NCBI GenBank assembly: GCA_035539375.1
Contig: DATLIP010000099.1
Coordinates: 1,394 to 65,393 of the forward strand
Direction: 5' to 3'
Source: Bdellovibrionota bacterium
Lineage (GTDB): Bacteria > Bdellovibrionota > UBA2428
Length of the DNA: 64,000 nucleotides
Below are positions 2,989-63,558 of the stretch, in pieces. The notes under the pieces are model-generated. The model saw only the letters and a program-made list of their open reading frames with translations, was not told the DNA's origin and did not search any database. The position numbers and the translations under genes are program-made. Each line of letters starts with the position of its first letter. Within the stretch, counting starts at the first letter, position 1.

Positions 2989-3810
2989 ATGTTGAGCCCG
3001 GGTTTGTTTTTGAAAGAGATCATTCGGCTTAAGATTCTTAAAAATCCCAGCCTGTCGATTCGTTCCATCGCTCGGGCTACGGGCGTCAGCGGCGCCTATT
3101 TGAGTCGCGTGATGTCGGGCAAGAGCACGATTTCCATCCAAAGGGCCGATGCCATCGCCGACAAACTCAAATTCAGCCGCATCGAGCGCGCCGCCTTTTT
3201 GCAATCGGTTGCCGTATACTCGGCCCGCGGTGAGGCTCGCGTAACTCTGTTGAAAGCCTTGGACGAAGTTGCCAATGCTGCAACGCCCTTCACGCTTCAG
3301 GAATACGCTCTGCTCGATGAAAACGCTCAGAGCGGATTGCTGGCGCGTTGGTACTTGCCTGCACTCCTCGACCTGGTCACCTGCACGAATTTTGAACCCA
3401 ATGTGGAGTGGATTGCCAAGCGCTTGAGTTTAAGCTCCGAAGAGGTGTCGTGGGGCCTGGCGCATCTCGAGCGTATTGGACTCCTCGATCGTTCTTCGCC
3501 GAAATGGCGCAAAAACGCCGACGCCATTTATTGCGCCACCGAAGAGTCGCGTCAAGCAGTGCGACACTTTCACACGCAGATGTCGCAGAAGGCCGTTGAG
3601 CAACTCAATACCGCCACCGACAAATCGGCTTACGAGCGTCGCAGCGTAACGGGACTTACTCTCGCTGTGGACTCTGCAAAGTTGCCCGTGGCAAAAAGAC
3701 TGATCGAACGTTTTCAGCACCGATTAGCCAATCACTTGACCCTGGGCAATTGCACCGAAGTTTATCATTTGAACGTTCAGCTTTTTCCGCTGACGAGAGG
3801 AGCTGAGTGA
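2989..3810 (+). CDS. TIGR02147/DUF4423-like helix-turn-helix protein (putative local regulator)
   Basis: LKNPSLSIRSIARATGVSGAYLSRVMSGKSTISIQRADAIADKLKFSRIERAAFLQSV matches the N-terminal HTH layout I recall for the TIGR02147 paralogous family. A ~180-aa C-terminal domain follows. Start is ATG 2989; an upstream TTG at 2947 is possible. Confidence 0.6.
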   Translation: MLSPGLFLKEIIRLKILKNPSLSIRSIARATGVSGAYLSRVMSGKSTISIQRADAIADKLKFSRIERAAFLQSVAVYSARGEARVTLLKALDEVANAATPFTLQEYALLDENAQSGLLARWYLPALLDLVTCTNFEPNVEWIAKRLSLSSEEVSWGLAHLERIGLLDRSSPKWRKNADAIYCATEESRQAVRHFHTQMSQKAVEQLNTATDKSAYERRSVTGLTLAVDSAKLPVAKRLIERFQHRLANHLTLGNCTEVYHLNVQLFPLTRGAE

Positions 3811-4421
3811 TGCTCAAAGGACTTTTGTCGCTGGCAATCTTTATGGGCTCTGCAAGTGCTTTGGCGCAAGTCGGTGGGGGCCGCACCGCCATCGGAGGTG
3901 GCGGCGACCCTCGCGCCATCAAAATTTATGGAATCGCCAATAGCATTTGGAATGCCTACCATTGGGCCTTCTCCTTTGATTACCTCAGGATCGAAGCGTT
4001 GCCGAAAATGGCTCAAAGTCGTATCGACTCCCTCATGGGAAAGACGGGCCAGCTGGAAGTCATCGTCGAGTCGCGGCTCTTCATTCGTGAGGAGATTCAT
4101 GCGCACCGTTGGACTCGCATTAGCCAGGCAGAATTCGAAGAGGCCCAAAAGCTTCGCCAAGAACCTGGGGTAGTGGTGCGTGAAGTTTCGGCCATCAATT
4201 ATCCCGTGTTGAACATGCTTTACATCAGTTACGAACGCTGGAAAACGCACTCGGACAATGAAAGAATTTTCCTCCTCTTTCACGAACTCGTGAGTCTTGG
4301 CAATGTCCAAGAAACCCCGCACTACCGCTACACGCGCAGTTTTATGAATTGGCTCGCCCGCAATCCGGGGCAATACTCCTATCTCGTCTTGCAAATCAAT
4401 CCGCAGTACCCACTTCCTTAA
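3810..4421 (+). CDS. Secreted hypothetical protein, translationally coupled to the upstream HTH gene
   Basis: Signal peptide MLKGLLSLAIFMGSASALAQ. The start ATG overlaps the upstream stop (TGATG at 3808-3812). No recognisable family. Confidence 0.55.
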   Translation: MLKGLLSLAIFMGSASALAQVGGGRTAIGGGGDPRAIKIYGIANSIWNAYHWAFSFDYLRIEALPKMAQSRIDSLMGKTGQLEVIVESRLFIREEIHAHRWTRISQAEFEEAQKLRQEPGVVVREVSAINYPVLNMLYISYERWKTHSDNERIFLLFHELVSLGNVQETPHYRYTRSFMNWLARNPGQYSYLVLQINPQYPLP

Positions 4422-4615: not shown

Positions 4616-7192
4616 ATGTCACTCAAAAAAAATATCTTTAATTATGGTCTGATGACCTTTATCAGCGTGGCTGTTTTTACGGCCTGCGATGTGCAATTGT
4701 CTCCCAACGACCAGCCACTGAGTGGTGAGGCCTGCGAAAATCTCAATCACAACCAAACTGTCTATTTGAACCGATATAAAAAGTCTTCGGTCCCCGAAGG
4801 CCAGAGCTGTGAATCCGAACGTGTGACCCTCGAGATGTCGTGCCTCAATGGTACCGTTTCGATCGTTCCAAACGTCGTTAGCTTTCTGAGCTGCGAAGAG
4901 GATTCGAACCCTGAAGAAGAGTATCTCTCGTGCGGCGAGGTTGAACACGGTGGTCCAATTAGCCGAGATGGCTTTAGCGTGCCGCAAGTTGCCCATGTTT
5001 TAGGTTACTCTTGTGATGACCGCCGCGTGAACCGCGTGGTGGCCTCTTGTGTAAACGGTGACGAGGTCCCGGTAGATCCCGCGCCAAGCAATTTTTATCT
5101 CGCGTGTTCAGACTTGCCCGCACCGGGCGGTACCGGAGACCCACTCGTGGCCTTCATGACCGCCAAGAGCCAGTTGGATCTGAGCATCGTCAGTACTACG
5201 GCCGCATTTCAACAGCACAGCTTTACGGCATCTAAAGATTTTGAGCTAAAATTTTTCTACTCTCGCAGTGCGAACAACGTCACGCCAAACACCGTCATCG
5301 CAATTTCCGATCGTCCCCTTATTGCTGGCCGTGAGGATTCGTATTACCAGGCCGCAATCACGATTCGTTGTAACAACGGCGCGTTCGACGTGCGCAGCGG
5401 TTCGTCCGTCGTGCAGATGGACATGACATGTGCTATCGGCAACGCCTATATGATCGACGTTACGGTGCTTGACGCTACCGATCGTCGCTTCAATGTGAGC
5501 ATCGAAGACAAGAATGGTGTGGTGGCTACTAAAAATGATCTCGCGTTCCGTACCTCATACAGCGGAGACGTTCGGCTTTCGAAATTAAACTTTATCTCTG
5601 ACGGTGCGACTTCGAGTGGTAACACTCGAATTGACCGCATTACGAATCATGTTTTTGATAATAACGAAGAGTCCGAAGAAGAACCCGAACCCGGCGAAGC
5701 TTCGTGCTCGAATGGCCTGGCTCACGGCCAATCCCAAACGCAGAGGCTCTACCGCTATCCCTCCGTTCCGAATGGTCAGACGTGTTCTTATGTGGATCAG
5801 TCACGTAGTTGCACGAATGGTCAATTGAGCGCGTACCTGCCCAGCACTACTTATACCAATGCGAATTGCTTCGTGGAGAGCGAAGAAGAGCCCGAGATTC
5901 CCGGTGGTTCTGCTTGTGCTAGTGGTTCGGCATCACAGATCACCCAGCGCGGAGTCACTTGGAAATTCAGCACCGCCGTGCAGTGCGGTCACTACGTGAA
6001 CGGCGACTACTGGGTCAAGGCTCCGGTAACGATCACGCAGATCACAACCGAAGGCGGCGGGGGCACCATGTTAAACCCCGTGCCCGGTGGCAAAAACGGC
6101 TTCCACGCCGACGCCCTGAACTCGTCGAGTCGAGATTACGATGCGTCTCTCAACATCAACTCGCAGCTGCCCAAAACGGTGCAGGCCAATGACATGCTCG
6201 TCTCGGCTTCGACCTACGGCAGTTTCAATTCGAATTACGACACAATCCTCAAACACATTGTAGCGCTGTCGGTAGTGGGCGCTCCTCCTGCCTCTGGCGC
6301 CTTCCGCCCGGCGGTTTTCCGCTCGGCCCACAACCAGTTCAACTACAACAACATCAATTGGTCGAAACTTAAGAACCTTGCCTTGCCTGCAGGCGCGCCG
6401 ACCATCGATTCGGTGCTCTCACAAGTGAGTGTGCTGCCGTGGATCGACTGGTGCGGTAGTTATATCTGTAAAAAAGCGCAGCCGCGCGAGAACACGATTC
6501 ACGAAAACTACGGTCGCGAGATCGCCAAGAAGTTTGCGAACGCCGCCCTGGCGCTCAACATGAACTACGACCAAGACAAAAAGCGTCAACTCGCGATTCG
6601 CGTGATCCAGGCTGGTATCGACATCTACGGTTACCTCAAAAACGGTCAGAAGTTTGATCCAGACGGTGGTCACAAGCACGGTCGTAAAATGCCGATCCTC
6701 CTCGCTGGGGTGCTGCTTAACGACCAAGAGATCCTGAACTACGCGAGCAACCCGAGCATGTTCCAAGAAGACATGCAGACCTTTATGATCACTTCGAGCG
6801 ATGTGGGTCGAAACCTTTCGGACGGTAAAATGGCTTATCAGAGTCACATGGTGGGGTGCCCTGAGTGGGGCGTGCGTCACGGAACGCGCCCCTCTGAAGA
6901 CAACGCGGATTGGGATCAAAACTATCGTACGGTCAATGGTTCTTCGACCATTGGTAGCGTGCTTGCCGCCCGCATCATGGGCATCGAAGCCCAATGGAAT
7001 CACGATGCGATATTCCGATACTGGGATCGCTACTATGAGATTGAAAAAGGCAACGCCGGTGGCGGGGCCAACAGCATCTCGACCTTCGTGAACAACAGCT
7101 GGATCGCCTACCGCAACCTCAACGGGGTGGGCCTGACCTACGACCGCAGCCGCGGTACGAGCGTCGGCAGCGGATGCTTGTTCAAACCTTAA
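4616..7192 (+). CDS. Modular lipoprotein 1: three 4-Cys modules + shared beta-rich domain + unassigned ~425-aa C-terminal domain
   Basis: Lipobox signal MSLKKNIFNYGLMTFISVAVFTAC. 4-Cys modules lie at nt 4733-4894, 4931-5107 and 5705-5869. The shared domain lies at 5162-5659. The C-terminus (GVTWKF..CGHYVNGDYWV, then a helical region) is not recognised. SD GGAG sits 5 nt upstream of ATG 4616. Confidence 0.8.
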   Translation: MSLKKNIFNYGLMTFISVAVFTACDVQLSPNDQPLSGEACENLNHNQTVYLNRYKKSSVPEGQSCESERVTLEMSCLNGTVSIVPNVVSFLSCEEDSNPEEEYLSCGEVEHGGPISRDGFSVPQVAHVLGYSCDDRRVNRVVASCVNGDEVPVDPAPSNFYLACSDLPAPGGTGDPLVAFMTAKSQLDLSIVSTTAAFQQHSFTASKDFELKFFYSRSANNVTPNTVIAISDRPLIAGREDSYYQAAITIRCNNGAFDVRSGSSVVQMDMTCAIGNAYMIDVTVLDATDRRFNVSIEDKNGVVATKNDLAFRTSYSGDVRLSKLNFISDGATSSGNTRIDRITNHVFDNNEESEEEPEPGEASCSNGLAHGQSQTQRLYRYPSVPNGQTCSYVDQSRSCTNGQLSAYLPSTTYTNANCFVESEEEPEIPGGSACASGSASQITQRGVTWKFSTAVQCGHYVNGDYWVKAPVTITQITTEGGGGTMLNPVPGGKNGFHADALNSSSRDYDASLNINSQLPKTVQANDMLVSASTYGSFNSNYDTILKHIVALSVVGAPPASGAFRPAVFRSAHNQFNYNNINWSKLKNLALPAGAPTIDSVLSQVSVLPWIDWCGSYICKKAQPRENTIHENYGREIAKKFANAALALNMNYDQDKKRQLAIRVIQAGIDIYGYLKNGQKFDPDGGHKHGRKMPILLAGVLLNDQEILNYASNPSMFQEDMQTFMITSSDVGRNLSDGKMAYQSHMVGCPEWGVRHGTRPSEDNADWDQNYRTVNGSSTIGSVLAARIMGIEAQWNHDAIFRYWDRYYEIEKGNAGGGANSISTFVNNSWIAYRNLNGVGLTYDRSRGTSVGSGCLFKP

Positions 7193-47558: not shown

Positions 47559-48092
47559 CTAAGCTCTAGCCCCACCTTGATGAGATTTGCTATGGCTAGG
47601 CACCATGAGGGCGTCGCGGTTTACTGAACTCAGTGCAATGTCATTGAGCGCCGTGTCGGCAGACCTTTCTTCTTCAAGAGTTTCCGTCAGCACATCCACG
47701 TCTTCCACAAAGCCCAACATCTCGGCGTAGCAGCGTGCGGTACCGTAGCCCGCCATTTCGTAATGCTCTACGCGTTGAGCGCTGGCGATGATGGCGGCGT
47801 CCTTGACCTCAGGTGAGGCTTTCCATTCGGAAATTTCTTTTTCGCCTTCAGCGATGAGTCCTTGCATGGCTTTGCAAGATTCCCGCTCCGCTTTCATGCC
47901 ATGAGTTTCAAAAATGGATTTGAGGCGGGTGACATGACCCTTGGTTTCTTCGAGGTGTTTGTTGAGGCCTCGTTGCAACTCCTTTGACGAAGCGGCATCC
48001 ATCATTTTGGGAAGGGCTTCTACAAGTCGGTATTCGGCGTCGTATAGGTCTTTAAGTTGTTCAAAGTAGAGGTCTTTTAATGAGGTGGTCAT
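47559..48092 (-). CDS. Ferritin-like DUF892 (YciE/YciF family) protein
   Basis: LYFEQLKDLYDAEYRLVEALPKM...HLEETKGHVTRL...AQRVEHYEMAGYGT is canonical DUF892. SD AAGGAG. Confidence 0.88.
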   Translation of the reverse strand: MTTSLKDLYFEQLKDLYDAEYRLVEALPKMMDAASSKELQRGLNKHLEETKGHVTRLKSIFETHGMKAERESCKAMQGLIAEGEKEISEWKASPEVKDAAIIASAQRVEHYEMAGYGTARCYAEMLGFVEDVDVLTETLEEERSADTALNDIALSSVNRDALMVPSHSKSHQGGARA

Positions 48093-48166
48093 GGGGATGG
48101 GTCTCCTTTTTGGCTGTTTTTATGACGCGAGTCTGAGCCTCGCGTTGGCATCGCCTCAGACCTAGT

Positions 48167-48182
48167 TGCAAAGGAAATGCCA
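48167..48182 (-). promoter_or_regulatory. Sigma-54 (-24/-12) promoter driving the DUF892 gene
   Basis: The minus strand reads TGGCATTTCCTTTGCA. GG and GC are separated by exactly 10 nt, as in the consensus TGGCAC-N5-TTGCA. It lies about 75 nt upstream of ATG 48092 and next to a divergent sigma-54 activator gene. Confidence 0.8.
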
Positions 48183-48361
48183 AGACTGAGAACGCCTGAG
48201 AGACTCCTCTATGGCATCTAGAAGCTTGTGGGGATGAGAACTCGCCCCAAAAAAGACCAAAGCCTCTGCAAAACGCCTCACCAAAATTTGTTGAGATGGT
48301 GTCAGGAAAACTTAACCCATACGTGCTTGATGCCCCACGAGGTTAGATTAAAAATAGCCCC

Positions 48362-49378
48362 ATGATGAAGCATGAAAATTTGAGAAAGATCATTGGTAAT
48401 TCCCCGTCCATGCAAGATCTCTTTCAGACCATGGCAAAAGTGGCTCCCTCTTCTGCCAACGTTTTGATTCAGGGTGAAAGTGGTACAGGAAAAGAGCTTG
48501 TTGCACGCGCGATTCACGATATGAGTGATCGGTGTGACAAACCTTTCCGGGCCATCAATTGCGCCTCCATCCCGAGCGATTTGCTTGAATCAGAACTTTT
48601 TGGTCACCGAAAGGGCGCTTTCACCGGGGCAAGTGTTCAACACCAGGGGCTCTTCGAAGCCTCTACTGGCGGCACCATTTTCTTAGATGAAATTGGCGAT
48701 ATGCCTATACTCCTGCAGTCCAAGCTTTTGCGTGTGCTGCAAGAATCGAAAGTCAGGCCCGTGGGGTCCAACGACGAAATTCAAGTCGACGTACGCATTG
48801 TGGCCGCTACCCACCAAAACCTCGGTGATCTCGTGCGGAAAAAGAAATTTCGCGAAGATCTCTACTTCCGCCTTAATGTGATCCCCCTAGTCATTCCGCC
48901 TCTGCGTATGCGCGAAGAGGATATGCAGGTGCTTACCGAACACTTTTTAGAAAAGTTTTCACATCTACACATGAAGTCGGTGACTCAAGTCAGTCCCGAC
49001 GTCATCGAAGCCTTTAAAAAGTACGGTTGGCCAGGCAACGTGCGTGAGCTTGAGAACTCCATCGAACGCGCGGTGCTGCTCACCGAGCGCAACGAACTTC
49101 GCATGGAAGATTTTGGTTGGCTCTCGGCCAAACTCAGCATGCCGGGTGAGAACTTTGCCTTGCCGGTCATTGAGAATGGCGTCTTTAAAATCCCTCTGAG
49201 CGTTTCGCTCAAAGAGCTCGAAGGACGTTATATCAAAGCCTATTGTCAGGCACATCCGAACATGACTCAAGAAGACGTGGCCACCGGACTCGGCATCAAC
49301 CGCAAAACTTTGTACCGAAAGTTCCAGGCCGAAAAACGCGCGGCCGCCGCCAAGGCAGCAACCTCGCTACCCACTTAG
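48362..49378 (+). CDS. Sigma-54-dependent transcriptional activator lacking any N-terminal sensory/receiver domain (AAA+ + Fis-type HTH only)
   Basis: The AAA+ domain starts within about 10 aa of the N-terminus (IGNSPSMQDLF...). Walker A GESGTGKE, GAFTGA loop (RKGAFTGA), Walker B FLDEI and a C-terminal HTH (QEDVATGLGINRKTLYRK) are present. Confidence 0.9.
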   Translation: MMKHENLRKIIGNSPSMQDLFQTMAKVAPSSANVLIQGESGTGKELVARAIHDMSDRCDKPFRAINCASIPSDLLESELFGHRKGAFTGASVQHQGLFEASTGGTIFLDEIGDMPILLQSKLLRVLQESKVRPVGSNDEIQVDVRIVAATHQNLGDLVRKKKFREDLYFRLNVIPLVIPPLRMREEDMQVLTEHFLEKFSHLHMKSVTQVSPDVIEAFKKYGWPGNVRELENSIERAVLLTERNELRMEDFGWLSAKLSMPGENFALPVIENGVFKIPLSVSLKELEGRYIKAYCQAHPNMTQEDVATGLGINRKTLYRKFQAEKRAAAAKAATSLPT

Positions 49379-49393
49379 AATCTATCCTTCTCT

Positions 49394-49450
49394 AGAGCCT
49401 CGTTAACGAAATCCAAGTTCGGATTTGGTTAACGAGGCTCTGATCTTTTT
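49394..49450 (+). terminator. Rho-independent terminator after the activator gene
   Basis: The 21-bp stem agagcctcgttaacgaaatcc / ggatttggttaacgaggctct has one mismatch. The loop is aagttc. It is followed by gatcttttt. Confidence 0.75.
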
Positions 49451-49563
49451 AAACCCCAGAATGACTATGGCTAGAGGACTCACGGTGAGTCTTTTTGTCG
49501 CGACTTTTGCTGCCTTCGGCCCCCGCAGCTTTGTGGAAGTGTCAAATTCGATCAGGGGGCCTC

Positions 49564-49579
49564 TGGCATCTCTCTTGCA
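49564..49579 (+). promoter_or_regulatory. Sigma-54 (-24/-12) promoter driving the DUF2383-like gene
   Basis: TGGCATCTCTCTTGCA has canonical GG-N10-GC spacing and is nearly identical to the promoter at 48167-48182. It lies 59 nt upstream of ATG 49638. Confidence 0.8.
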
Positions 49580-49637
49580 ACTTCTTTGTGTAAAATTGTG
49601 GGCTCGCCATGCGAGTCATCAAAACAAAGGAGAAAGC

Positions 49638-50123
49638 ATGAATACCGGAAACTACAACACCAATCGAGAATTCAACCGAGATCTCAATCCCGAAGCCACC
49701 GCGGACAAGCTCAACGAGCTTATCCGGGGCGAACGTTCGGCAGTGGAAACCTATCAACAAGCCTTTGCGAAGGTCGGCAACGACCCGCGTGTGCAGGATT
49801 TGCGTCCCCTCTTTGCCGATCACGAGCAAGCCGTTCGTTTGCTGACCGACAAAGTTCAAGCCTGCGGTGCCAAGCCGTCTGTGGATAGCGGTGCCTGGGG
49901 AACATGGGCGGAAACCGTGATGGGCACAGCAAAATTCTTCGGAGATCGTGCGGCTCTCGGTGCGCTTAAGCAAGGTGAGGAGCATGGCATCAAGCAATAC
50001 GAAGACGCTCTGCAGAGTGAGACTCTCGACGCCTCCGCTCGCAGCATCATTCAAAATCAGCTACTGCCTCAGCAGCGCGCTCACGTGGTGGCGCTCGACC
50101 GTATCATCAGCACTTTAAACTAA
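49638..50123 (+). CDS. Ferritin-like four-helix-bundle protein, DUF2383/PA2169-like
   Basis: KLNELIRGERSAVETYQQAF...LFADHEQAV...GAWGTW...ALKQGEEHGIKQYEDAL fits the PA2169-family pattern. SD AAAGGAG precedes ATG 49638. The upstream part of ORF 49425-50123 was discarded. Confidence 0.65.
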   Translation: MNTGNYNTNREFNRDLNPEATADKLNELIRGERSAVETYQQAFAKVGNDPRVQDLRPLFADHEQAVRLLTDKVQACGAKPSVDSGAWGTWAETVMGTAKFFGDRAALGALKQGEEHGIKQYEDALQSETLDASARSIIQNQLLPQQRAHVVALDRIISTLN

Positions 50124-50152
50124 GTTCATTTAACCCGTTCATCGTTACACGG

Positions 50153-50193
50153 AGACCCCCCGGAACCTCTCTTGGTTTTGGGGGTCTTTCTTT
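50153..50193 (+). terminator. Putative terminator after the DUF2383-like gene
   Basis: The stem agaccccc / gggggtct has 8 bp and a long 19-nt loop. It is followed by ttcttt. Confidence 0.45.
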
Positions 50194-50485
50194 AAAAAAG
50201 GGGAGGGGAGATCCCCGAATTCAAGTTTTCATAAGGAAATGAGGCCTTTGCCCCTAGTTCCTAGGGCCGGGGCTTCAAGTTGTTAAGAAAGCATGACTGG
50301 ATATCAAGGGCGAAAGTACTTTAAGTTCCTATCGTTTGGCAGAACGAGTATTGGGGCTTGTTCAGTAGTTCTCGACATTGGGATCGAAAATCGCGTATCA
50401 TGCCTCCACGTCTCCTTTCCGGCACGTGTTAACGGTGTTTGAAGATTGTAAAAAGCCCAAGAATCCAGGAGGATTCATAACTGAT

Positions 50486-50872
50486 ATGACTAGCGCTTCC
50501 GGCAAAACTATTCTCGTGATTGAAGATCATCCTGACACTTTGATGTTCATGTCTTTGGCCCTCGAAAAAGAGGGATTTTCCGTGATCGAAGCCACCAACG
50601 GCAACGACGCTCTTAGTCGCATCCAAGGCGGTGAAACCCCCGACCTCGTGCTCGTGGATTTCTGCATGCCAGGCTGTAATGGCAAAGAGTTTATCGAAAG
50701 GTTCCGCAACCAGCCGGGCTTTGAGAAGACTCCTGTTTATTTCACTTCGGGTTGGGGAGACCTCGACGAAGTGACCCGCGACTGTGGCGCTCAAGGCTAC
50801 ATTGAAAAGCCTGTGGATTTGGACAAGCTCATCAACAAAGTGGGTGAAGTCTTGGCCCCCAACGCCAACTGA
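50486..50872 (+). CDS. Stand-alone response-regulator receiver domain protein
   Basis: TILVIEDHPDT...PDLVLVDFCMPGCNG...YFTSGW...GYIEKP has the acidic pair, phospho-Asp, T/S and K positions. SD AGGAGG precedes ATG 50486. Confidence 0.88.
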   Translation: MTSASGKTILVIEDHPDTLMFMSLALEKEGFSVIEATNGNDALSRIQGGETPDLVLVDFCMPGCNGKEFIERFRNQPGFEKTPVYFTSGWGDLDEVTRDCGAQGYIEKPVDLDKLINKVGEVLAPNAN

Positions 50873-50953: not shown

Positions 50954-51337
50954 TTAAGACTGACGACGTCCCTGCTGGTGACGCACGCGAGAGCGGACGG
51001 CGCCCTGGATGCGCGAGGTGCCAGAATGCGCAAATTTGTTGAGGTTGCGCTGGTCGTTGGTGATCTCCGAATGCGGATGAACATTGGCCGGCATTTGATC
51101 CGGGCTGCGCTGGTTGAATCCCTGATTTACCGAGGGTGACTCACGCGGAGTGCCCCCGCTCGCCGTCGGGGAGGGCTTTTGTTTGTTAGAGGTTTTGGCG
51201 CTCAATTTGCGTGACGTGATCTTTGTCGGAGATTTGGAACTTTTGGTGGCGACTTTTTTGCGGGTGGTTTTTTGGCTCGTGGCGCCCCGTTTGGTGCTTT
51301 TACTGGGATGGGTGGTTTTGGTTGCCATAATATTCAC
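50954..51337 (-). CDS. Highly basic Lys/Ser/Thr-rich low-complexity protein (histone-H1-like N-terminal half)
   Basis: MATKTTHPSKSTKRGATSQKTTRKKVATKSSKSPTKITSRKLSAKTSNKQK..., then a Gln/Arg-rich tail. It ends at the bidirectional terminator. No family recognised. The start may be 51328. Confidence 0.5.
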   Translation of the reverse strand: MNIMATKTTHPSKSTKRGATSQKTTRKKVATKSSKSPTKITSRKLSAKTSNKQKPSPTASGGTPRESPSVNQGFNQRSPDQMPANVHPHSEITNDQRNLNKFAHSGTSRIQGAVRSRVRHQQGRRQS

Positions 51338-55168: not shown

Positions 55169-55245
55169 TTCGCAAAAAAAAAACGCCACAAGGATCATTC
55201 CCTTGGTTCATCACCTCGGGGCGATCCTCGTGGCGGCTGGGTGCC

Positions 55246-55425
55246 TTAGACCTTGTGTGGATGATTCGGGTTCGAATGACTTTTTTCGATCTTATCACCC
55301 AGGTCGTGCACCTTTTGACCGAGTTTGGGGGCGCCTTTTTCGGCAATTTTGTGTCCTGCTTTTTCAACAGCGCCACCAATACGGTCTCTCAAGGAAGTTT
55401 TTTTGTTTTTGTTTTTTGGGTTCAT
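55246..55425 (-). CDS. Small basic Lys-rich hypothetical protein (59 aa)
   Basis: An ORF with an ATG start but no convincing SD. The translation is MNPKNKNKKTSLRDRIGGAVEKAGHKIAEKGAPKLGQKVHDLGDKIEKSH. Confidence 0.3.
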   Translation of the reverse strand: MNPKNKNKKTSLRDRIGGAVEKAGHKIAEKGAPKLGQKVHDLGDKIEKSHSNPNHPHKV

Positions 55426-55577
55426 GCCTAGAAAACTGCAACCGTCGTGCCAGCGCTGAAGCCTTCTTGTAGCGCCAGTAGACAAAGATTTGGGGCGAAA
55501 TCATCACAAAGTTTACGGGGCATTCCTGAATTTTGGTCCATTTTGCACCTTGCGCGCCCTGCGCTATGATGTGCCGC

Positions 55578-58015: not shown

Positions 58016-58414
58016 ATGGGCCATAGTGATTTGCGAGTCCTCATCGTCGACGACAACCAAAGTGACCGATTGCTGTGCAAGGCCCTCGTTTCGAACCTCG
58101 GTGTGACGCAGATTCAGGGTGCCGAGAACGGATCCATTGCCGAGACCAAAATGGTGGCCGCCGTGGACGTTGGCCAAGCCTACGATCTTGTGATTCTGGA
58201 TTGGAATATGCCTCGAGCCAATGGGCTCAAGTTGCTGCAGTACGTGCGCCACAATCGCCGTTTGAAACAGACAAAGATCATCATCATGACAGCCACGGCA
58301 GAGCGCGAGCTCGTGGATGAGGCGATCAAGCACGGCGCAGATGACTTTATTGTGAAGCCATTAAAGGCCGAACCGCTGCACGAAAAAATCAAAAAACTTT
58401 TTGAAAAACACTAA
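58016..58414 (+). CDS. CheY-like single-domain response regulator
   Basis: RVLIVDDNQSDR, DLVILDWNMPRANG, IIMTA and DFIVKP are present. Confidence 0.9.
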   Translation: MGHSDLRVLIVDDNQSDRLLCKALVSNLGVTQIQGAENGSIAETKMVAAVDVGQAYDLVILDWNMPRANGLKLLQYVRHNRRLKQTKIIIMTATAERELVDEAIKHGADDFIVKPLKAEPLHEKIKKLFEKH

Positions 58415-61400
58415 GCCGCCTGTTTTTGGCGCGCTGTCCATTTCTCAATGGCCGCACGCAGCGACTCTTTTTTGATGGGCTTAGCGAGATAATCGTCCAT
58501 GCCCGCCGCGAGACACTTTTTGTCATCGCCCGAAAGTGCGTTGGCCGTGAGGGCTACGATGGGGATCGTGCGGATACGCTCGTTTTCCGAATCGCGGATG
58601 CGGCGGGTGGCTTCGAAGCCATCCATTTCTGGCATCTGACAATCCATCAGAACGAGGTCGAAGGACATTTTTTCTAGAGCGTCGAGCACTTCGAGACCGT
58701 TGGCCACGACGGACACCGTATAGCCAAAGCTCTGTAGGATTTTCTTCACGAGCATTTGGTTCACGGCAACGTCTTCGGCCACGAGGATGCGTGTGCCCAC
58801 GCTCACTGTATCGTTGACTTGAGAGCCCGCACTCAGGAGTCTCGGCGACGTGTCGGCGGTGGCGTTTTCGCCATGGGCAGTAACGCGAACGATGGCGTTG
58901 TAGAGATCCGATTGCTTGATGGGCTTGGTGACCACGTCGTCAAAGCCGTGTTCATTGAGCGTTTCGGGCTTGAGGGACTTGCCAAAATCCGCCATGAGCA
59001 CCGCTTTAAGGCGCGGATAACCTTCGCGCAGCGAAGTGAGGACTTTGCGTAAGTCCGATTTGCGCGAATGCGTACCCGAGAATACCACTTCAAAGCGTCT
59101 TTCCGCGGCGGGTAGGGCTTTGAGCTTTTGAGGCGCCTCGGCGAGCGAGGTGAAGAGCACGTTGTGAATGCTCCATGACTTGAGGTAACTGCAAACCGAG
59201 CTCCGCACGCTTTCGTTGTCTTCGATGACGAGAATGCGCAGGTGGCTTAGCAGGCGTACTTGTTCGGATCGCGTGGCGGCATCGTTTTCTTGGGCAACCG
59301 TCATCGGAATCTCAAACCAAAAGGTCGAACCTGCGCCCACTTCGCTCGTGACGCCGATCTTGCCGTGCATGGCTTCCACAAGGCGGCTGCAAATCGAGAG
59401 ACCAAGTCCTGTTCCACCGTATTTGCGGGAGGTGTCGTTCTCGCCCTGCGAAAAGGCCCGAAAGAGTTTGCCCATAGTGCTCTCACTCATGCCGATGCCT
59501 GTGTCTTGAACTTCAAAGCGCACTCGCGGAGCGCTGTAAGCATTTTCGGAGGCCGTGTTGAAGACACGCACCGAGATGCCGCCCTTTTGAGTGAATTTGA
59601 GAGCGTTGCCCACGAGGTTTAGCAAGATTTGGCCGATGCGCCCCGAATCGCCGACGACGAGCTTTGGCAAGTCCGGAGAGATGAAAGCGCTCAGGCCCAC
59701 GCGTTTTTGTCTTGCTTTGGGCATGAGGATGTCGACTTGGCTCTCCACCACTTGCACGAGGCTTAAAGGTGTCTCTTCGAGCACAAGACGACCGGCCTCG
59801 ATTTTGGAGAAGTCGAGGATATCATTGATCAGGTTCAAGAGCGCAGTTCCGGAATGCTGTACGATTTCGGCGTAGTTGCGCTGTTCATGATCTAGCTTGG
59901 TTTCGAGAATCAAGTCCGTCATGCCGATGATGCCGTTGAGCGGCGTGCGGATCTCGTGACTCATGTTAGCGAGGAAGGCCGACTTTGCCTGAGTGGCGGT
60001 TTCGGCGGCGTCGAGCGCAGCGAGCAGCTCGTGTCGCGAGTGTACGGCAGCCGTGACATCTCCAATGGTGGCTACGAGGCGTTGGCGCTTGCCATCTTCG
60101 CGCACGATTTGCCCAAAGGCACGCACCCAGCGAACGCCGCAGCCGGGTCCCGGCGTGACGCGAAACTCGACATCGATGTTAGGCGAAGCGCCGCTGACAT
60201 AGGCCTCGACGGCGCGAACAAGTTTGCTTCGATCCGCAGCTTCTACGCGCTCATTGACCTCGGCGAAGGTCGGGTTTTCGTGGGCGGCGTAGCCAAAGAT
60301 GTTCTTTGCCTGATCATCCATGAACTGGATCTCGCCACTCTCAAAATCGCGCTCCCAAATGCCCTCCTGAGTAGAATCGATCACGCGCAACAAGCGCTCG
60401 TGCGTGATGCGCAGTTCTTCTTCGGCTTTTTTGCGTTCGGTAAGGTCCGCGGCGATGCCCAGGTAACCGGTCACTTCGCCGTCGGCGTTGTGTAGAGCGG
60501 TAACGGTGAGTGAAACCGGAAGGCGAGTGCCATCTTTACGCACATAGGTCCATTCATGCTCGTCGGTAGCGCCTGTGAGCTGTGTTTTGGCCACAAAGAC
60601 TTTGAATCCGGGTTCGATGCTGAAGCCGAGTTCTCGGCTCAACTGTACGGCTCGGGCCTTCACTTCGTCGGGATCGTGGAAGATGCCGGGATGGGTTTTA
60701 CCGACAACTTCGTCTTCGGAATAACCGAGCATTTGAGAAGCGGTGCGGTTGAAGGTTTGGATCATGCCCTGCGCGTCGCTCGAGATGATCGAATAGCTGG
60801 CAGCGTTTAGTAGCGTGCGTTTCCAGAGAAGGTCTTGCTTGTCTTTAGCCTCTTTTTCTTTTTGAGCTCGGCTGGCAATTTCGAGCAGTCCACCCACGAC
60901 AAAAGCAAAGAGGAAGCCCGCTAGGAGCAGAATGTGAGGAATGTTGGAGGCCCTGCTTTTGACGAAGCTTTCAGTGGGAACGATGGTGATGTTCCAGGAC
61001 GCGAGACCGTGGCGCAAACGCACCTTGCTTGAGAGAAGTTCTACGGGCGAGGATTTGCCGTTTTGTTGGAAAACCAGATGGCCAGACTCTTGCACGCTCA
61101 CAAAAAAATCTCGAGCATCGAAAACAGCGCCGAAAAGCTTTTGGGTTTGTACAGTGGCGTAAATCGCACCGGTGGCACGACCATTTTTGTAGAGTGCCAC
61201 GGGGAGAATGTTGCCGATGCCGCCCGATCGTAGTTTCACGGTACGGCTCAGTGAGGGTTGATGCATGTCTTTGGCGTTTTCAAAGGCCTCGCGCCGCGTA
61301 GCTATAGTGGCCTGACTAAAGTTCTTTACCTGATTGCTTAAAAACTCAGGGTAGGACCAGGTGACTTCCCAGCGCTCATTGACCACGCCAATGCGAGTGA

Positions 61401-62289
61401 GGATGGGCAGCTGGCTAAGGTAGCTCTGGCTGTCGAGCTCTAAGAACTTGTGATTTTGGGTTCCCAGAAGTTCCACGCGCTTGGCATAACGCGAAAGGGC
61501 GAGCGAGGTTTGTTCGATGGTCTCGCTGAGTTTGTCGCGCGACTTGCTGTTGAGGAATTTTACCTGCTCGCGGATGTGGTTGGACTCCATGCCCAGGGCG
61601 TATTGCCAGATGAAGACCGTGATCGTGAAGAGCATGGTGGTGATCAGTGTGGGTTGGAGCAAATAGCGGAGCTCTTTTTTTCGGCGTAGCTGAAGGAGAT
61701 TGCTGAGGGTGACAAAGGCACCGAAAAGGGTGAAGTTTGTAGAGGCTGGTACGGACATGTGTACGAAAGAGGTCATGTCGGGGTTGGGTTTCAGACCCAG
61801 CCCGGCGCTCGCCAGCGTTATGATTCCCAGCGACGTGGTGAGGGCACCGAGCAGGGTACGAAAGCGCGAGGCTTCGGGCAGTAGGTAGCACGCGCCGAGA
61901 AGTGAGAGGCCCACCGCCGAGTTGAAGGACATCCGTCCCGGGTGTCCTTGGTAGATAGAGATCAAGCTTTCGCGAAAGAGGGTGTCGATGCCGAGGTTTA
62001 GATTGCCCAAATGTTCCATGAGCGTTGCGACACCGAGTGTGAGGGCGATAGCCGCCAGAGCGCGCGCTTTCCGCAGGCGCCCTTTAATCTCGAGAAGATG
62101 AGCGAAGACCACAAGAGCAAAGCCGAGGGCGGTGTTGAACTGAAAAGGCACCCAAAGTTTCCACATCGAATCGCCAGAAGCATCGACAATGCCGAGGAGT
62201 GTGGGTGCCGACACCAAGAGCACTAAGGTCGGAATGAGGAGGGTGAGGGGAAAATGCTTGGCTTTGATCATCTTAGGTCGCCTTTGCAC
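58411..62289 (-). CDS. Hybrid sensor histidine kinase (membrane N-domain, periplasmic sensor, 2x PAS, HisKA, HATPase_c, degenerate receiver, canonical receiver)
   Basis: H-box FLANMSHEIRTPLNG. N/G boxes are NLVGNALKFT, DTGIGM and GGTGLGLSI. The pseudo-receiver at 58882-59241 has Ser in place of the phospho-Asp (EVVFSGTH). The receiver at 58414-58794 has DLVLMDCQMPEMDG. Confidence 0.92.
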   Translation of the reverse strand: MQRRPKMIKAKHFPLTLLIPTLVLLVSAPTLLGIVDASGDSMWKLWVPFQFNTALGFALVVFAHLLEIKGRLRKARALAAIALTLGVATLMEHLGNLNLGIDTLFRESLISIYQGHPGRMSFNSAVGLSLLGACYLLPEASRFRTLLGALTTSLGIITLASAGLGLKPNPDMTSFVHMSVPASTNFTLFGAFVTLSNLLQLRRKKELRYLLQPTLITTMLFTITVFIWQYALGMESNHIREQVKFLNSKSRDKLSETIEQTSLALSRYAKRVELLGTQNHKFLELDSQSYLSQLPILTRIGVVNERWEVTWSYPEFLSNQVKNFSQATIATRREAFENAKDMHQPSLSRTVKLRSGGIGNILPVALYKNGRATGAIYATVQTQKLFGAVFDARDFFVSVQESGHLVFQQNGKSSPVELLSSKVRLRHGLASWNITIVPTESFVKSRASNIPHILLLAGFLFAFVVGGLLEIASRAQKEKEAKDKQDLLWKRTLLNAASYSIISSDAQGMIQTFNRTASQMLGYSEDEVVGKTHPGIFHDPDEVKARAVQLSRELGFSIEPGFKVFVAKTQLTGATDEHEWTYVRKDGTRLPVSLTVTALHNADGEVTGYLGIAADLTERKKAEEELRITHERLLRVIDSTQEGIWERDFESGEIQFMDDQAKNIFGYAAHENPTFAEVNERVEAADRSKLVRAVEAYVSGASPNIDVEFRVTPGPGCGVRWVRAFGQIVREDGKRQRLVATIGDVTAAVHSRHELLAALDAAETATQAKSAFLANMSHEIRTPLNGIIGMTDLILETKLDHEQRNYAEIVQHSGTALLNLINDILDFSKIEAGRLVLEETPLSLVQVVESQVDILMPKARQKRVGLSAFISPDLPKLVVGDSGRIGQILLNLVGNALKFTQKGGISVRVFNTASENAYSAPRVRFEVQDTGIGMSESTMGKLFRAFSQGENDTSRKYGGTGLGLSICSRLVEAMHGKIGVTSEVGAGSTFWFEIPMTVAQENDAATRSEQVRLLSHLRILVIEDNESVRSSVCSYLKSWSIHNVLFTSLAEAPQKLKALPAAERRFEVVFSGTHSRKSDLRKVLTSLREGYPRLKAVLMADFGKSLKPETLNEHGFDDVVTKPIKQSDLYNAIVRVTAHGENATADTSPRLLSAGSQVNDTVSVGTRILVAEDVAVNQMLVKKILQSFGYTVSVVANGLEVLDALEKMSFDLVLMDCQMPEMDGFEATRRIRDSENERIRTIPIVALTANALSGDDKKCLAAGMDDYLAKPIKKESLRAAIEKWTARQKQAA

Positions 62290-62489
62290 ATGCTGTTTTG
62301 ATCGGTTCTTGGAGGGTGAAACTTAAGAAGGCTAGCAGGTCTTTGAGTGTCAATTTGCCGTCAGCGATCATGTTTCGCTCGCTCAGGAACCTGGAGTGGA
62401 TATTCTCTTTGAGATGGATTTTAATGGGACAAGATTTTAGCAGCGAAGTACCGGTTTGCGACGCTGTGAGATGGGTGGGAGACAAGCAA

Positions 62490-62843
62490 ATGACACCGTT
62501 TGATAGCAGCGTACTTGAAGAACTCAAACAACTCGAAGGCGATCGTTATCCGACGCTTCTGCAGGATTTGCTCGAACTCTATGTCGACTGGGCCCCCGGA
62601 GTGGTGGCAAAGATCGAAGAAGCCGTGAAGACCCAAGATCATCCTACGCTCGAGAGCGAAGCGCATTCGCTCAAGTCAAGCAGCGGCAATCTGGGCGCCA
62701 CCAAACTACAGCAGCTTTGTCATGATCTTGAAAAGTGCGGTGTCAAGCACGACCAGGCGGGTGCTGAGCGCACTTTTGTGCTCTTTAAGAGCGAATGCCA
62801 AAAGGTTGTGGCGGCCGCGCAGGCCCTGCTCGCGAAGTATTAG
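62490..62843 (+). CDS. Hpt (histidine phosphotransfer) domain protein
   Basis: ESEAHSLKSSSGNLGATKL is the H-x-x-K-G/S Hpt signature. SD GGGAG lies 8 nt upstream of ATG 62490. An alternative ATG lies at 62424. Confidence 0.85.
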   Translation: MTPFDSSVLEELKQLEGDRYPTLLQDLLELYVDWAPGVVAKIEEAVKTQDHPTLESEAHSLKSSSGNLGATKLQQLCHDLEKCGVKHDQAGAERTFVLFKSECQKVVAAAQALLAKY

Positions 62844-63000
62844 GGTTATAGAAAGTTGCTAGTGGCTAACCTAAGCCGTTCTGCAGATTAAAAAAACATC
62901 GCAACATCTTTGCTGGGACTCCATCTTTCTCCGCTTTAATGGCGCCTTCGAGATTCTATTCTCGCATTGTTTCAAAACGTATTTTTTTAAAGGAGAAATC

Positions 63001-63558
63001 ATGTCATTAGAATCTATCCAAGACCTCTTAGTCGACGAAGTGAAGGACCTCTACAGCGCTGAGCTGCAGCTCATGGTGGCGCTTCCGAAAATGGCCAAAG
63101 CCGCGAGCAATGCCCAGCTGCGCAGCGGTATCGAAACCCACCTACGAGAAACTCAGCGGCAGGTCTCTCGCCTGGAGCAAGTTTTTGAATTGATGGACGT
63201 GCCCGCCAAGGCCAAGCACTGCAAGGCGATGGAAGGCCTCATCAAAGAAGGCTCCGAAGTGATCGAGGAGAAAAAGGCCGATCCCGCAGTAAAAGATGCC
63301 GCTTTGATCGCGGCTGCGCAAAAGGTCGAGCATTACGAAATTGCCTCGTACGGCAGTGCCATTGCACATGCCAATCTATTGGGACTTGGCAACGTTTCTA
63401 AGGTGCTGGAGCAAACGCTCGTCGAAGAAAAATCTACGGACCAAAAACTCACGAGCCTCGCCGAAGGTCGGGTGAATCTTGACGCTGCAGGAGCCTCTAG
63501 TTCCCAGCAGAGTTCCAAACGACATAGCGTCGAAGGTGGTCCCTCTCCGATGTACTAG
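63001..63558 (+). CDS. Ferritin-like DUF892 (YciE/YciF family) protein, second paralog
   Basis: LLVDEVKDLYSAELQLMVALPKM...HLRETQRQVSRL...AQKVEHYEIASYGS. SD AAAGGAG. Confidence 0.88.
   Translation: MSLESIQDLLVDEVKDLYSAELQLMVALPKMAKAASNAQLRSGIETHLRETQRQVSRLEQVFELMDVPAKAKHCKAMEGLIKEGSEVIEEKKADPAVKDAALIAAAQKVEHYEIASYGSAIAHANLLGLGNVSKVLEQTLVEEKSTDQKLTSLAEGRVNLDAAGASSSQQSSKRHSVEGGPSPMY

Follow-up and report, generated by a model that had tools for sequence, protein, structure and literature searches.

A putative sigma-54 module in a Bdellovibrionota contig: a receiver-less activator between DUF892 and DUF2383 ferritin-like genes

The yciGFE genes of Escherichia coli and Salmonella (YciF, YciE) are RpoS-dependent stationary-phase and stress genes, and DUF892 (YciE/YciF) and DUF2383 (PA2169) proteins are widespread stress-induced proteins of unknown function. 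The sigma-54 system has very low basal activity, and among its enhancer-binding proteins (EBPs) PspF and HrpR/S are known to lack a regulatory domain; such receiver-less EBPs are usually active once expressed. Here we describe a receiver-less EBP gene that lies between a DUF892 and a DUF2383 gene in a 64-kb stretch of DNA from an uncultured Bdellovibrionota bacterium (the window; all window scans cover those 64 kb only). We consider it probable, from sequence comparison, that these genes form a conserved sigma-54 module in which the adjacent EBP drives both targets from two outward-facing promoters. Every component comes from a known family and the proposed mechanism is a textbook one; what stands out is the apparent wiring of general-stress-type genes to sigma-54 and the pairing of activator types. 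The window genes are annotated at NCBI (HVJ65803-HVJ65806), with no promoter or regulon annotation in the records retrieved. The literature searched held no paper tying DUF892, YciF, DUF2383 or ferritin-like stress proteins to sigma-54 and no description of a sigma-54 stress regulon for Bdellovibrio, and gave no function or regulation for the DUF2383 family where DUF2383 was mentioned.

The closest described arrangement is pspF-pspABCDE of E. coli, with which the window shares an EBP made of an AAA+ domain and a helix-turn-helix (HTH) alone, divergent from a sigma-54-dependent stress gene, so that activator sites are expected in the common intergenic region. The window EBP is, however, no ortholog of PspF, reaching 259.8 bits with TIGR02974 (cut-off 443.55) and 223.3 bits with NF008622 (cut-off 529); it has no PspA/IM30 partner, pspA is not adjacent and no PspA-like gene was found among the neighbours by Pfam. 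It also differs in having two target promoters, one per side, and in that its targets are ferritin-fold rather than membrane-stress proteins. With yciGFE the window shares a clear YciF homolog, the DUF892 product; unlike yciGFE, this gene has a predicted -24/-12 promoter with a putative dedicated AAA+ activator in place of a sigma-S/sigma-70-type promoter, and a second DUF892 paralog in the window has no such box. The DUF2383 product shares with the PA2169 family a Pfam match above cut-off and a fold that superposes on PA2169 (4etr) and on ferritin-like diiron proteins; it differs in scoring below the TIGR02284 cut-off, in an N-terminal Asn/Gly-rich extension and in a conserved DSGAWGTW motif. 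Loci used for comparison are of two types, those with a receiver-less EBP (L010, L011 and L019) and those with a receiver-type EBP (L007, L009, L012 and L015).

Promoters, activator and target genes

Boxes were assigned to sigma-54 when GG and GC were exactly 10 nt apart within TGGCAC-N5-TTGCW, and transcription starts were predicted 12 nt after the GC of the box. Both window boxes (Table 1) read TGGCAT-N5-TTGCA with a GG-to-GC gap of exactly 10 nt, and the two 18-mers differ at only 3 positions, 15 of 18 being the same. Each is oriented toward its gene, the minus-strand box lying 72 nt ahead of the DUF892 ATG and the plus-strand box 56 nt ahead of the DUF2383 ATG at 49638. A search with the shared pattern TGGCATNTCNNTTGCAAC, allowing up to 2 mismatches, returned 2 sites in the window, just these promoters (0.18 expected; 0 of 100 shuffles reached 2), and the looser pattern TGGC-N7-TTGCW occurred 6 times against 1.5 expected. 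From box geometry, transcription is predicted to start at ~48156 (-) and ~49590 (+), giving leaders of ~64 nt for DUF892 and ~48 nt for DUF2383 with a small hairpin in each; predicted leaders across boxes range from 45 to 106 nt, a consistent box-to-ATG geometry. No sigma-70-like site was found by consensus scan upstream of DUF892 or in 49451-49637. As a promoter of the EBP gene, TGGCATCTAGAAGC at 48212 was rejected for its GG-to-GC spacing of 9 nt instead of 10.

The EBP carries the motifs of an AAA+ sigma-54 activator, including, besides those in Table 1, an arginine-finger region (REDLYFRL, residues 164-171). Its AAA+ domain starts at residue 10, and no N-terminal receiver, GAF, PAS or V4R domain was found; the orthologs P0004-P0006 likewise have no regulatory domain. 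The HTH_8 model clears its cut-off on the C-terminal 66 aa alone and goes unreported in a scan of the full-length protein at E ≤ 0.001, a marginal match that points to a divergent domain. No NCBIfam equivalog cut-off was reached. The intergenic distance between the EBP and DUF892 genes is only 269 bp.

The DUF892 product matches PF05974 with 172 bits over residues 5-161 and the YciF crystal structures 4eru, 2gs4, 2gyq and 7tmv at E=1e-35 to 1e-37; the same protein is labelled 'ferritin-like metal-binding protein YciE' at JGI. Read from its ATG (a 232-aa TTG open reading frame (ORF) from 49425 being an over-extension), the DUF2383 product reaches 49.4 bits against PF09537 (gathering cut-off 30.8) and 37.1 bits against the NCBIfam PA2169 model TIGR02284, under the curated cut-off of 44.8; by sequence it has no significant PDB match. 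An AlphaFold (AF2) model computed on 24 homologs is a four-helix bundle (pLDDT 86, pTM 0.80), for which Foldseek retrieved the ferritin-like diiron-carboxylate protein 2qqy (E=6e-4) as well as bacterioferritins and Dps proteins, and which superposes on the PA2169 crystal structure 4etr with a target-normalised TM-score of 0.88 and a root-mean-square deviation of 2.0 Å. Both ferritin-like products keep Glu/His ligand patterns, and the conserved DUF2383 residues E32, E37, H62, E114, E115 and H149 fit a di-metal site, which would imply metal binding. The original prediction had placed the two 18-mers, a GAFTGA activator between them and a DUF892 gene behind the minus-strand promoter, and reading, the shuffle test and Pfam confirmed all of these; its description of the plus-strand target as PA2169-like holds for Pfam family and fold and does not extend to the TIGR02284 subfamily.

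The predicted terminator downstream of the EBP gene is strong and would keep read-through from reaching the DUF2383 promoter. Because terminators at the 3' ends of the EBP gene and of DUF2383 bound the DUF2383 unit, the gene needs its own promoter in 49451-49637. Its transcript is predicted to be monocistronic and that of DUF892 is possibly so too; the stem-loop over the DUF892 stop codon may form the 3' end of that transcript. From these directly established sequence elements and domain contents, and from their conservation, we infer that both genes depend on sigma-54 and are paired with the adjacent EBP.

Table 1. Positions of sequence features in the 64-kb window; equivalents are given in the coordinates of the comparison loci
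Feature	Position	Strand	Evidence or remark
Stem-loop over DUF892 stop codon	47553-47577	-	-18.7 kcal/mol, z=-3.3; without U-tract
DUF892/YciF-like ferritin-fold gene, 177 aa	47559-48092	-	Pfam PF05974 E=1e-50; PDB YciF 4eru E=1e-37
Hairpin in predicted DUF892 5' leader	48125-48145	-	Fold of 48156-48089, -17.5 kcal/mol, z=-2.2
Putative sigma-54 -24/-12 promoter of DUF892 gene, TGGCATTTCCTTTGCAAC	48165-48182	-	Exact match; equivalents L010 3057-3040, L011 1975-1958
Originally predicted motif, CTATGGCATCTAGA	48209-48222	+	~27-40 nt from -24 element
GGGGC-type box, candidate activator half-site, TTGGGGCGAGTT	48239-48250	-	68 nt upstream of TGGCA; top motif of de novo search
Candidate upstream activator site, GGTGAGGCGTTTTG	48269-48282	-	100 nt upstream of TGGCA; co-oriented with DUF892 promoter
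Second GGGGC-type box, CGTGGGGCATCA	48328-48339	-	25 nt before EBP ATG; 12-mer CCTCGTGGGGCA identical in L010 at 3118-3107
Receiver-less EBP gene, 338 aa, HVJ65805.1	48362-49378	+	Pfam Sigma54_activat (PF00158) E=1e-72, AAA_lid_14
EBP Walker A, GESGTGKE, residues 38-45	48473-48496	+	Motif reading
EBP GAFTGA loop, residues 85-90	48614-48631	+	Motif reading
EBP Walker B, TIFLDEIGDM, residues 105-114	48674-48703	+	Motif reading
EBP Fis-type HTH	49265-49324	+	HTH_8 22.6 bits, cut-off 22
Predicted intrinsic terminator of EBP gene	49393-49450	+	Long hairpin and T-run; -35.3 kcal/mol, z=-9.8
Originally predicted motif, corrected position, CTATGGCTAGA	49465-49475	+	~89-99 nt from -24 element; CCCCAGAAT ahead at 49454-49462
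Candidate upstream activator site, GGTGAGTCTTTTTG	49484-49497	+	80 nt upstream of TGGCA; overlaps inverted repeat GACTCACGGTGAGTC, 49477-49491
Putative sigma-54 -24/-12 promoter of DUF2383 gene, TGGCATCTCTCTTGCAAC	49564-49581	+	Exact match; equivalents L010 4392-4409, L011 3293-3310, L019 162, L007 7878, L012 7963
DUF2383 four-helix-bundle ferritin-like gene, 161 aa	49638-50123	+	Pfam PF09537; AAGGAG ribosome-binding site
Predicted intrinsic terminator past DUF2383	50151-50194	+	-24.3 kcal/mol, z=-3.5, then TCTTTCTTT
Single-domain response-regulator receiver gene, downstream of DUF2383	50486-50872	+	Pfam Response_reg; sigma-70-like site 50372-50401
Putative third sigma-54 unit	55174-55452	-	Box TGGCACGACGGTTGCAGT 55452-55435; ORF 55425-55246; hairpin and T10 terminator 55234-55174
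Box TTGGGGCGAAAT near third unit	55490-55501	+	38-49 nt upstream of sigma-54 box

Conservation and sister activators

Protein search with the EBP returned a small group at 59-72% identity, the remaining matches being NtrC-like at 54% or less. The order DUF892 <- EBP -> DUF2383 is kept in L010 and L011, where the EBP shares 66-68% identity with that of the window and the DUF892 ortholog 66% (L010) or 60% (L011); a correctly oriented box precedes each target there, while the remaining intergenic DNA has diverged. The L019 contig begins in the last codons of the EBP (…LYRKFQ), followed by TGGCACTTCTTTTGCTGC, DUF2383 and a receiver gene. Beside this, at positions ~48-75 of L019 the 13-mer TAGTCGCTATGTT occurs twice in tandem without a mismatch, starting from the EBP stop codon, and the palindrome ACGGGGCACTTTGCCCCGT comes next. 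When a genome collection was scanned with the EBP, only generic EBPs at 42-52% identity were among the matches listed, and a metagenome scan with a back-translated GINRKTLYRKF pattern returned 2 contigs, one of them already known.

Recurrence of the arrangement and boxes in L010, L011 and partly L019 argues against chance. It is very improbable that the boxes are chance or non-functional sequences, with DUF892 and DUF2383 transcribed from unrecognised sigma-70 or extracytoplasmic-function (ECF)-type promoters and the EBP regulating something else. In its favour, promoter types of Bdellovibrionota are poorly catalogued, and neither the DUF2383 ortholog of locus L017 nor the second DUF892 paralog of the window (63001-63558) has a box. 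Against it stand the 2 sites where 0.18 were expected, the boxes, alike in position and orientation, that precede no fewer than 7 orthologous genes in 5 further loci whose flanks have diverged (DUF892 and DUF2383 in L010 and L011, DUF2383 in L019, L007 and L012), the lack of a sigma-70-like match upstream of either gene in the consensus scan, and the terminator that would stop read-through into DUF2383.

Promoter pairs within a genome are more alike than orthologous promoters between genomes: the window pair shares its 15 positions and both members end in AAC, and the L010 pair (3040-3057 and 4392-4409) shares 16 of 18 with both ending in ATC. Such matching suggests concerted evolution or selection for equal promoter strength.

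A second kind of activator is related to the EBP. The NtrC-family proteins P0002, P0003, P0007 and P0008 are 59-64% identical to the window EBP in protein search and 62-66% over the aligned core; these and P0009 carry an N-terminal receiver. A neighbour-joining tree built on the region common to all resolves the receiver-less EBPs as the sister group of the receiver-bearing ones, with other NtrC-family proteins lying outside, and the recognition helix GLGINRKTLYRKF is identical across both clades. Receiver-type EBPs share with the window EBP a linkage to DUF2383 and to sigma-54 boxes, and differ in the receiver itself, in an Hpt gene that comes next in 3 of the 4 loci read past the EBP, and in a hybrid kinase upstream in L009. 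A conserved PilZ gene lies upstream of the EBP in L007, L009, L012 and L015. With the strict pattern TGGCA-N6-[TC]TGC[AT], 15 boxes were counted in 41.5 kb of receiver-type loci against ~0.3 expected by plain arithmetic; they precede DUF2383, Ferritin/Dps and DUF1328 genes, an outer-membrane (OMP) beta-barrel gene and conserved small ORFs, and L009 has a weaker box, of CGGCAC type, ahead of a BON-domain gene. Such genes belong to RpoS, SigB or EcfG regulons elsewhere. For the small membrane-anchored proteins of these loci an ElaB/DUF883-like identity is not claimed, as they have no Pfam match.

Two further features of the receiver-type loci were recorded. Several boxes form divergent pairs, such as those between the Ferritin and DUF1328 genes of L015 (5046/5161) and between the Ferritin and OMP beta-barrel genes of L012 (10346/10481), with a single GGGGCA box between the promoters of each pair. 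In L007, an IS200/IS605-type Y1 transposase (2032-2631) sits between the PilZ gene and the small ORF, predicted to be sigma-54-driven, that lies ahead of the receiver-type EBP gene; the transposase is absent from L009, L012 and L015.

These loci also offer another candidate activator. The physiological activator could be a receiver-bearing sister EBP encoded elsewhere in the genome, the adjacent EBP being redundant, a competitor or mixed-oligomer modulator, or devoted to other targets. The shared recognition helix, the boxes before DUF2383 in receiver-type loci as well (L007, L012), a GGGGCA-type motif common to both kinds of locus and the precedent of a heteromeric receiver-less pair, HrpR/HrpS, speak for this. 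We nevertheless judge it unlikely, given that the receiver-less EBP is tightly linked to both targets in L010 and L011, and partly in L019, and that the window contains no receiver-type EBP.

Because the sister loci place boxes before genes of RpoS/SigB/EcfG type, the window module has the appearance of a receiver-less arm of a sigma-54 stress regulon particular to this lineage. A broader proposal is put forward tentatively, as one we would not favour over its negation: that in this Bdellovibrionota clade sigma-54 replaces RpoS/SigB/EcfG, with sister activators controlling a large share of the classic general-stress proteins, among them YciF/DUF892, DUF2383, Dps/ferritin, BON/OsmY-like, DUF1328/YtjA-like and small hydrophilic proteins. 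A hybrid-kinase/Hpt phosphorelay would feed one activator, and the receiver-less one would be gated in trans by the conserved single-domain receiver or by its own di-metal products. The module itself would mean that one lineage has shifted general-stress-type genes from a sigma-70-family factor to ATP-dependent sigma-54, which bears on the rewiring of stress regulons. The dedicated and unusual sigma-54 regulon originally predicted for these genes agrees with a searched literature that holds no such link; a closed two-gene regulon is nevertheless improbable because a third unit (box 55452-55435) lies in the window and the sister-EBP loci contain many boxes.

More distant DUF2383 genes were also inspected. 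That of L020 lies in a hemerythrin/MscS cluster with no boxes. In L021 (Verrucomicrobiales, GCA_029210205.1), a receiver-type sigma-54 activator is encoded near DUF2383, DUF1328 and Pmp3 genes, with TGGCACCCTCCCTGCAAA at 1599-1616 just before the activator gene and AGGCACGAGGCCTGCG at ~4940-4955, ~55 nt before DUF2383; this similar linkage in another phylum may point to more than one origin of the wiring.

Candidate activator sites and proposed mechanism

Activator sites were sought by de novo expectation-maximization (EM) motif search in 15 independent sigma-54 upstream regions and, in a second run, in the 7 regions of the receiver-less type. Over the 15 regions EM returned TTGGGGCAAAAT (LL 56.3 against 34.6 ± 1.4 in shuffles), its GGGGCA-type sites lying mostly 45-91 nt upstream of TGGCA; the pattern TGGGGC[AG], picked after the fact, is ~10-fold enriched in these regions (9 against 0.91 expected). 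The 7 receiver-less-type regions yielded a 12-mer, GTGAG(G/T)C(G/T)TTTT (36.6 against 29.4 ± 1.8), and a 15-nt dyad (45.7 against 38.5 ± 2.0) that is a perfect palindrome in L019 (GGGGCActtTGCCCC) and near-perfect in L011 (GGGCAaatTGCCG). Over both runs, the GGGGCA-type box or dyad falls 45-100 nt upstream of the sigma-54 boxes. The top 12-mer and part of the 15-mer dyad are contained in GGTGAGGCGTTTTG. Seed-and-sum scoring gave a marginal excess over shuffles, EM being the more decisive. In the window, GGTGAG-C-TTTTG has 2 matches, both at the module promoters and each co-oriented with its promoter, at offsets (100 and 80 nt) that differ by 20 nt, or ~2 helical turns. We regard GGTGAG-C-TTTTG and the GGGGCA-type boxes as the best activator-site candidates, held as candidates because the motif sets are small and their sequences related. 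The GGGGC box nearest the EBP gene may mediate autoregulation, by analogy with PspF.

A different motif, CTATGGC..TAGA, had been proposed in the original prediction to lie upstream of both promoters and possibly to bind the activator. CTATGGC(N0-3)TAGA does occur twice in the window (0.03 expected), the second copy at 49465-49475 and not at 49474-49488, and its TATGGC core is weakly enriched upstream of sigma-54 boxes (4 against 1.0 expected, p=0.02). It was rejected as the best activator site: its two copies share the plus strand, which makes them face opposite ways with respect to the promoters, their distances are unequal, the motif is not conserved as such in L010, L011 or L019, and the motifs above are better supported. 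CCCAGA[AT]T was found upstream of 4 sigma-54 boxes against 0.24 expected. A third near-copy of CTATGGC..TAGA, GCTATGGCTAGG at 47589-47600, falls within the 3'-terminal part of the DUF892 gene, in coding sequence, and is probably coincidental.

In the mechanism that we propose, sigma-54 RNA polymerase would sit on both -24/-12 promoters as closed complexes, and the EBP would bind upstream sites ~80-100 bp before each -24 element, oligomerise, contact the polymerase through a DNA loop and open the promoters by ATP hydrolysis. Short structured leaders with strong ribosome-binding sites would then lead to the YciF-like DUF892 and the PA2169-fold DUF2383 proteins. Having lost its receiver, the EBP would need its output set in another way, either through its own level or through a trans-acting factor of the kind that PspA is for PspF; judging from PspF and HrpR/S, it should be active at all times when it is made, provided that no partner holds it back. 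The input could come from control of EBP expression, from the conserved single-domain receiver or from feedback by the ferritin-like products.

The receiver gene past DUF2383 is matched by an ortholog at the corresponding place in L010 (72% identity) and in L019 (51%) but not in L011. It was considered as a domain split from the EBP and rejected, having no similarity to sister-EBP receivers at E<1e-5, and simple gene fission was therefore dropped; a partnership with the EBP is possible. On the same sigma-54 mechanism, the EBP might be restrained by a product of the module, either a ferritin-like protein whose di-metal site would sense iron or oxidants or the receiver, and released by stress. 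The PspF-type architecture and divergence from a target gene, as in pspF-pspA, fit this proposal, as do the receiver orthologs in 3 of 4 loci and the conserved Glu/His ligand positions of both products. We find it doubtful, since there is no PspA-like protein, L011 has no receiver gene, and the receiver of the window has an apparent sigma-70-like promoter of its own and is separated from DUF2383 by a terminator.

Several observations count against activation of both genes by the adjacent EBP through sigma-54. A sister receiver-type EBP with the identical recognition helix could serve the promoters instead or jointly, and the consensus scan recognised no promoter for the EBP gene. No rpoN was found in the window, where all ORFs of ~460-550 aa encode other proteins; its presence in the genome is indirectly implied by the GAFTGA EBP. 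On the 2.7-Mb contig L017, a DUF2383 ortholog of 70% identity has neither an adjacent EBP nor a box, so the sigma-54 wiring appears lineage-specific. Finally, the activator-site motifs were found post hoc in a small, related set and are degenerate at the window DUF2383 promoter in the pooled EM.

Should the adjacent EBP act as proposed, this compact set of activator and promoters would provide a handle on when DUF892 and DUF2383 proteins are made, and hence on their role. The module is directly testable in E. coli because receiver-less EBPs are usually active when expressed, and it could be used as a tightly off, orthogonal promoter/activator pair.

Other units in the window

The putative third sigma-54 unit encodes a hydrophilic, Lys/Gly-rich protein of 59 aa with no significant Pfam match, whose ORF is missing from the public gene call of the stretch (L001). 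The ORF begins 9 nt after the box, so its mRNA may be leaderless.

The second DUF892 paralog (Pfam E=5e-58) shares 44-47% identity with the orthologs that the first paralog has in L010 and L011. No properly spaced sigma-54 box was found upstream of it, which limits the proposed sigma-54 control to one paralog. Beside it are an Hpt-domain gene (62298-62843), a single-domain receiver gene (58016-58414) and a gene for a 1292-aa CHASE-PAS hybrid histidine kinase (58411-62289, minus strand); this phosphorelay (58016-63558) could provide input to the stress genes.

Past the receiver gene that follows DUF2383, the minus-strand ORF 50954-51337 encodes a Lys/Ser/Thr-rich, basic, low-complexity protein (…KSTKRGATSQKTTRKKVATKSSKSPTK…) without Pfam or NCBIfam match, which looks like a histone-H1-like or nucleoid protein.

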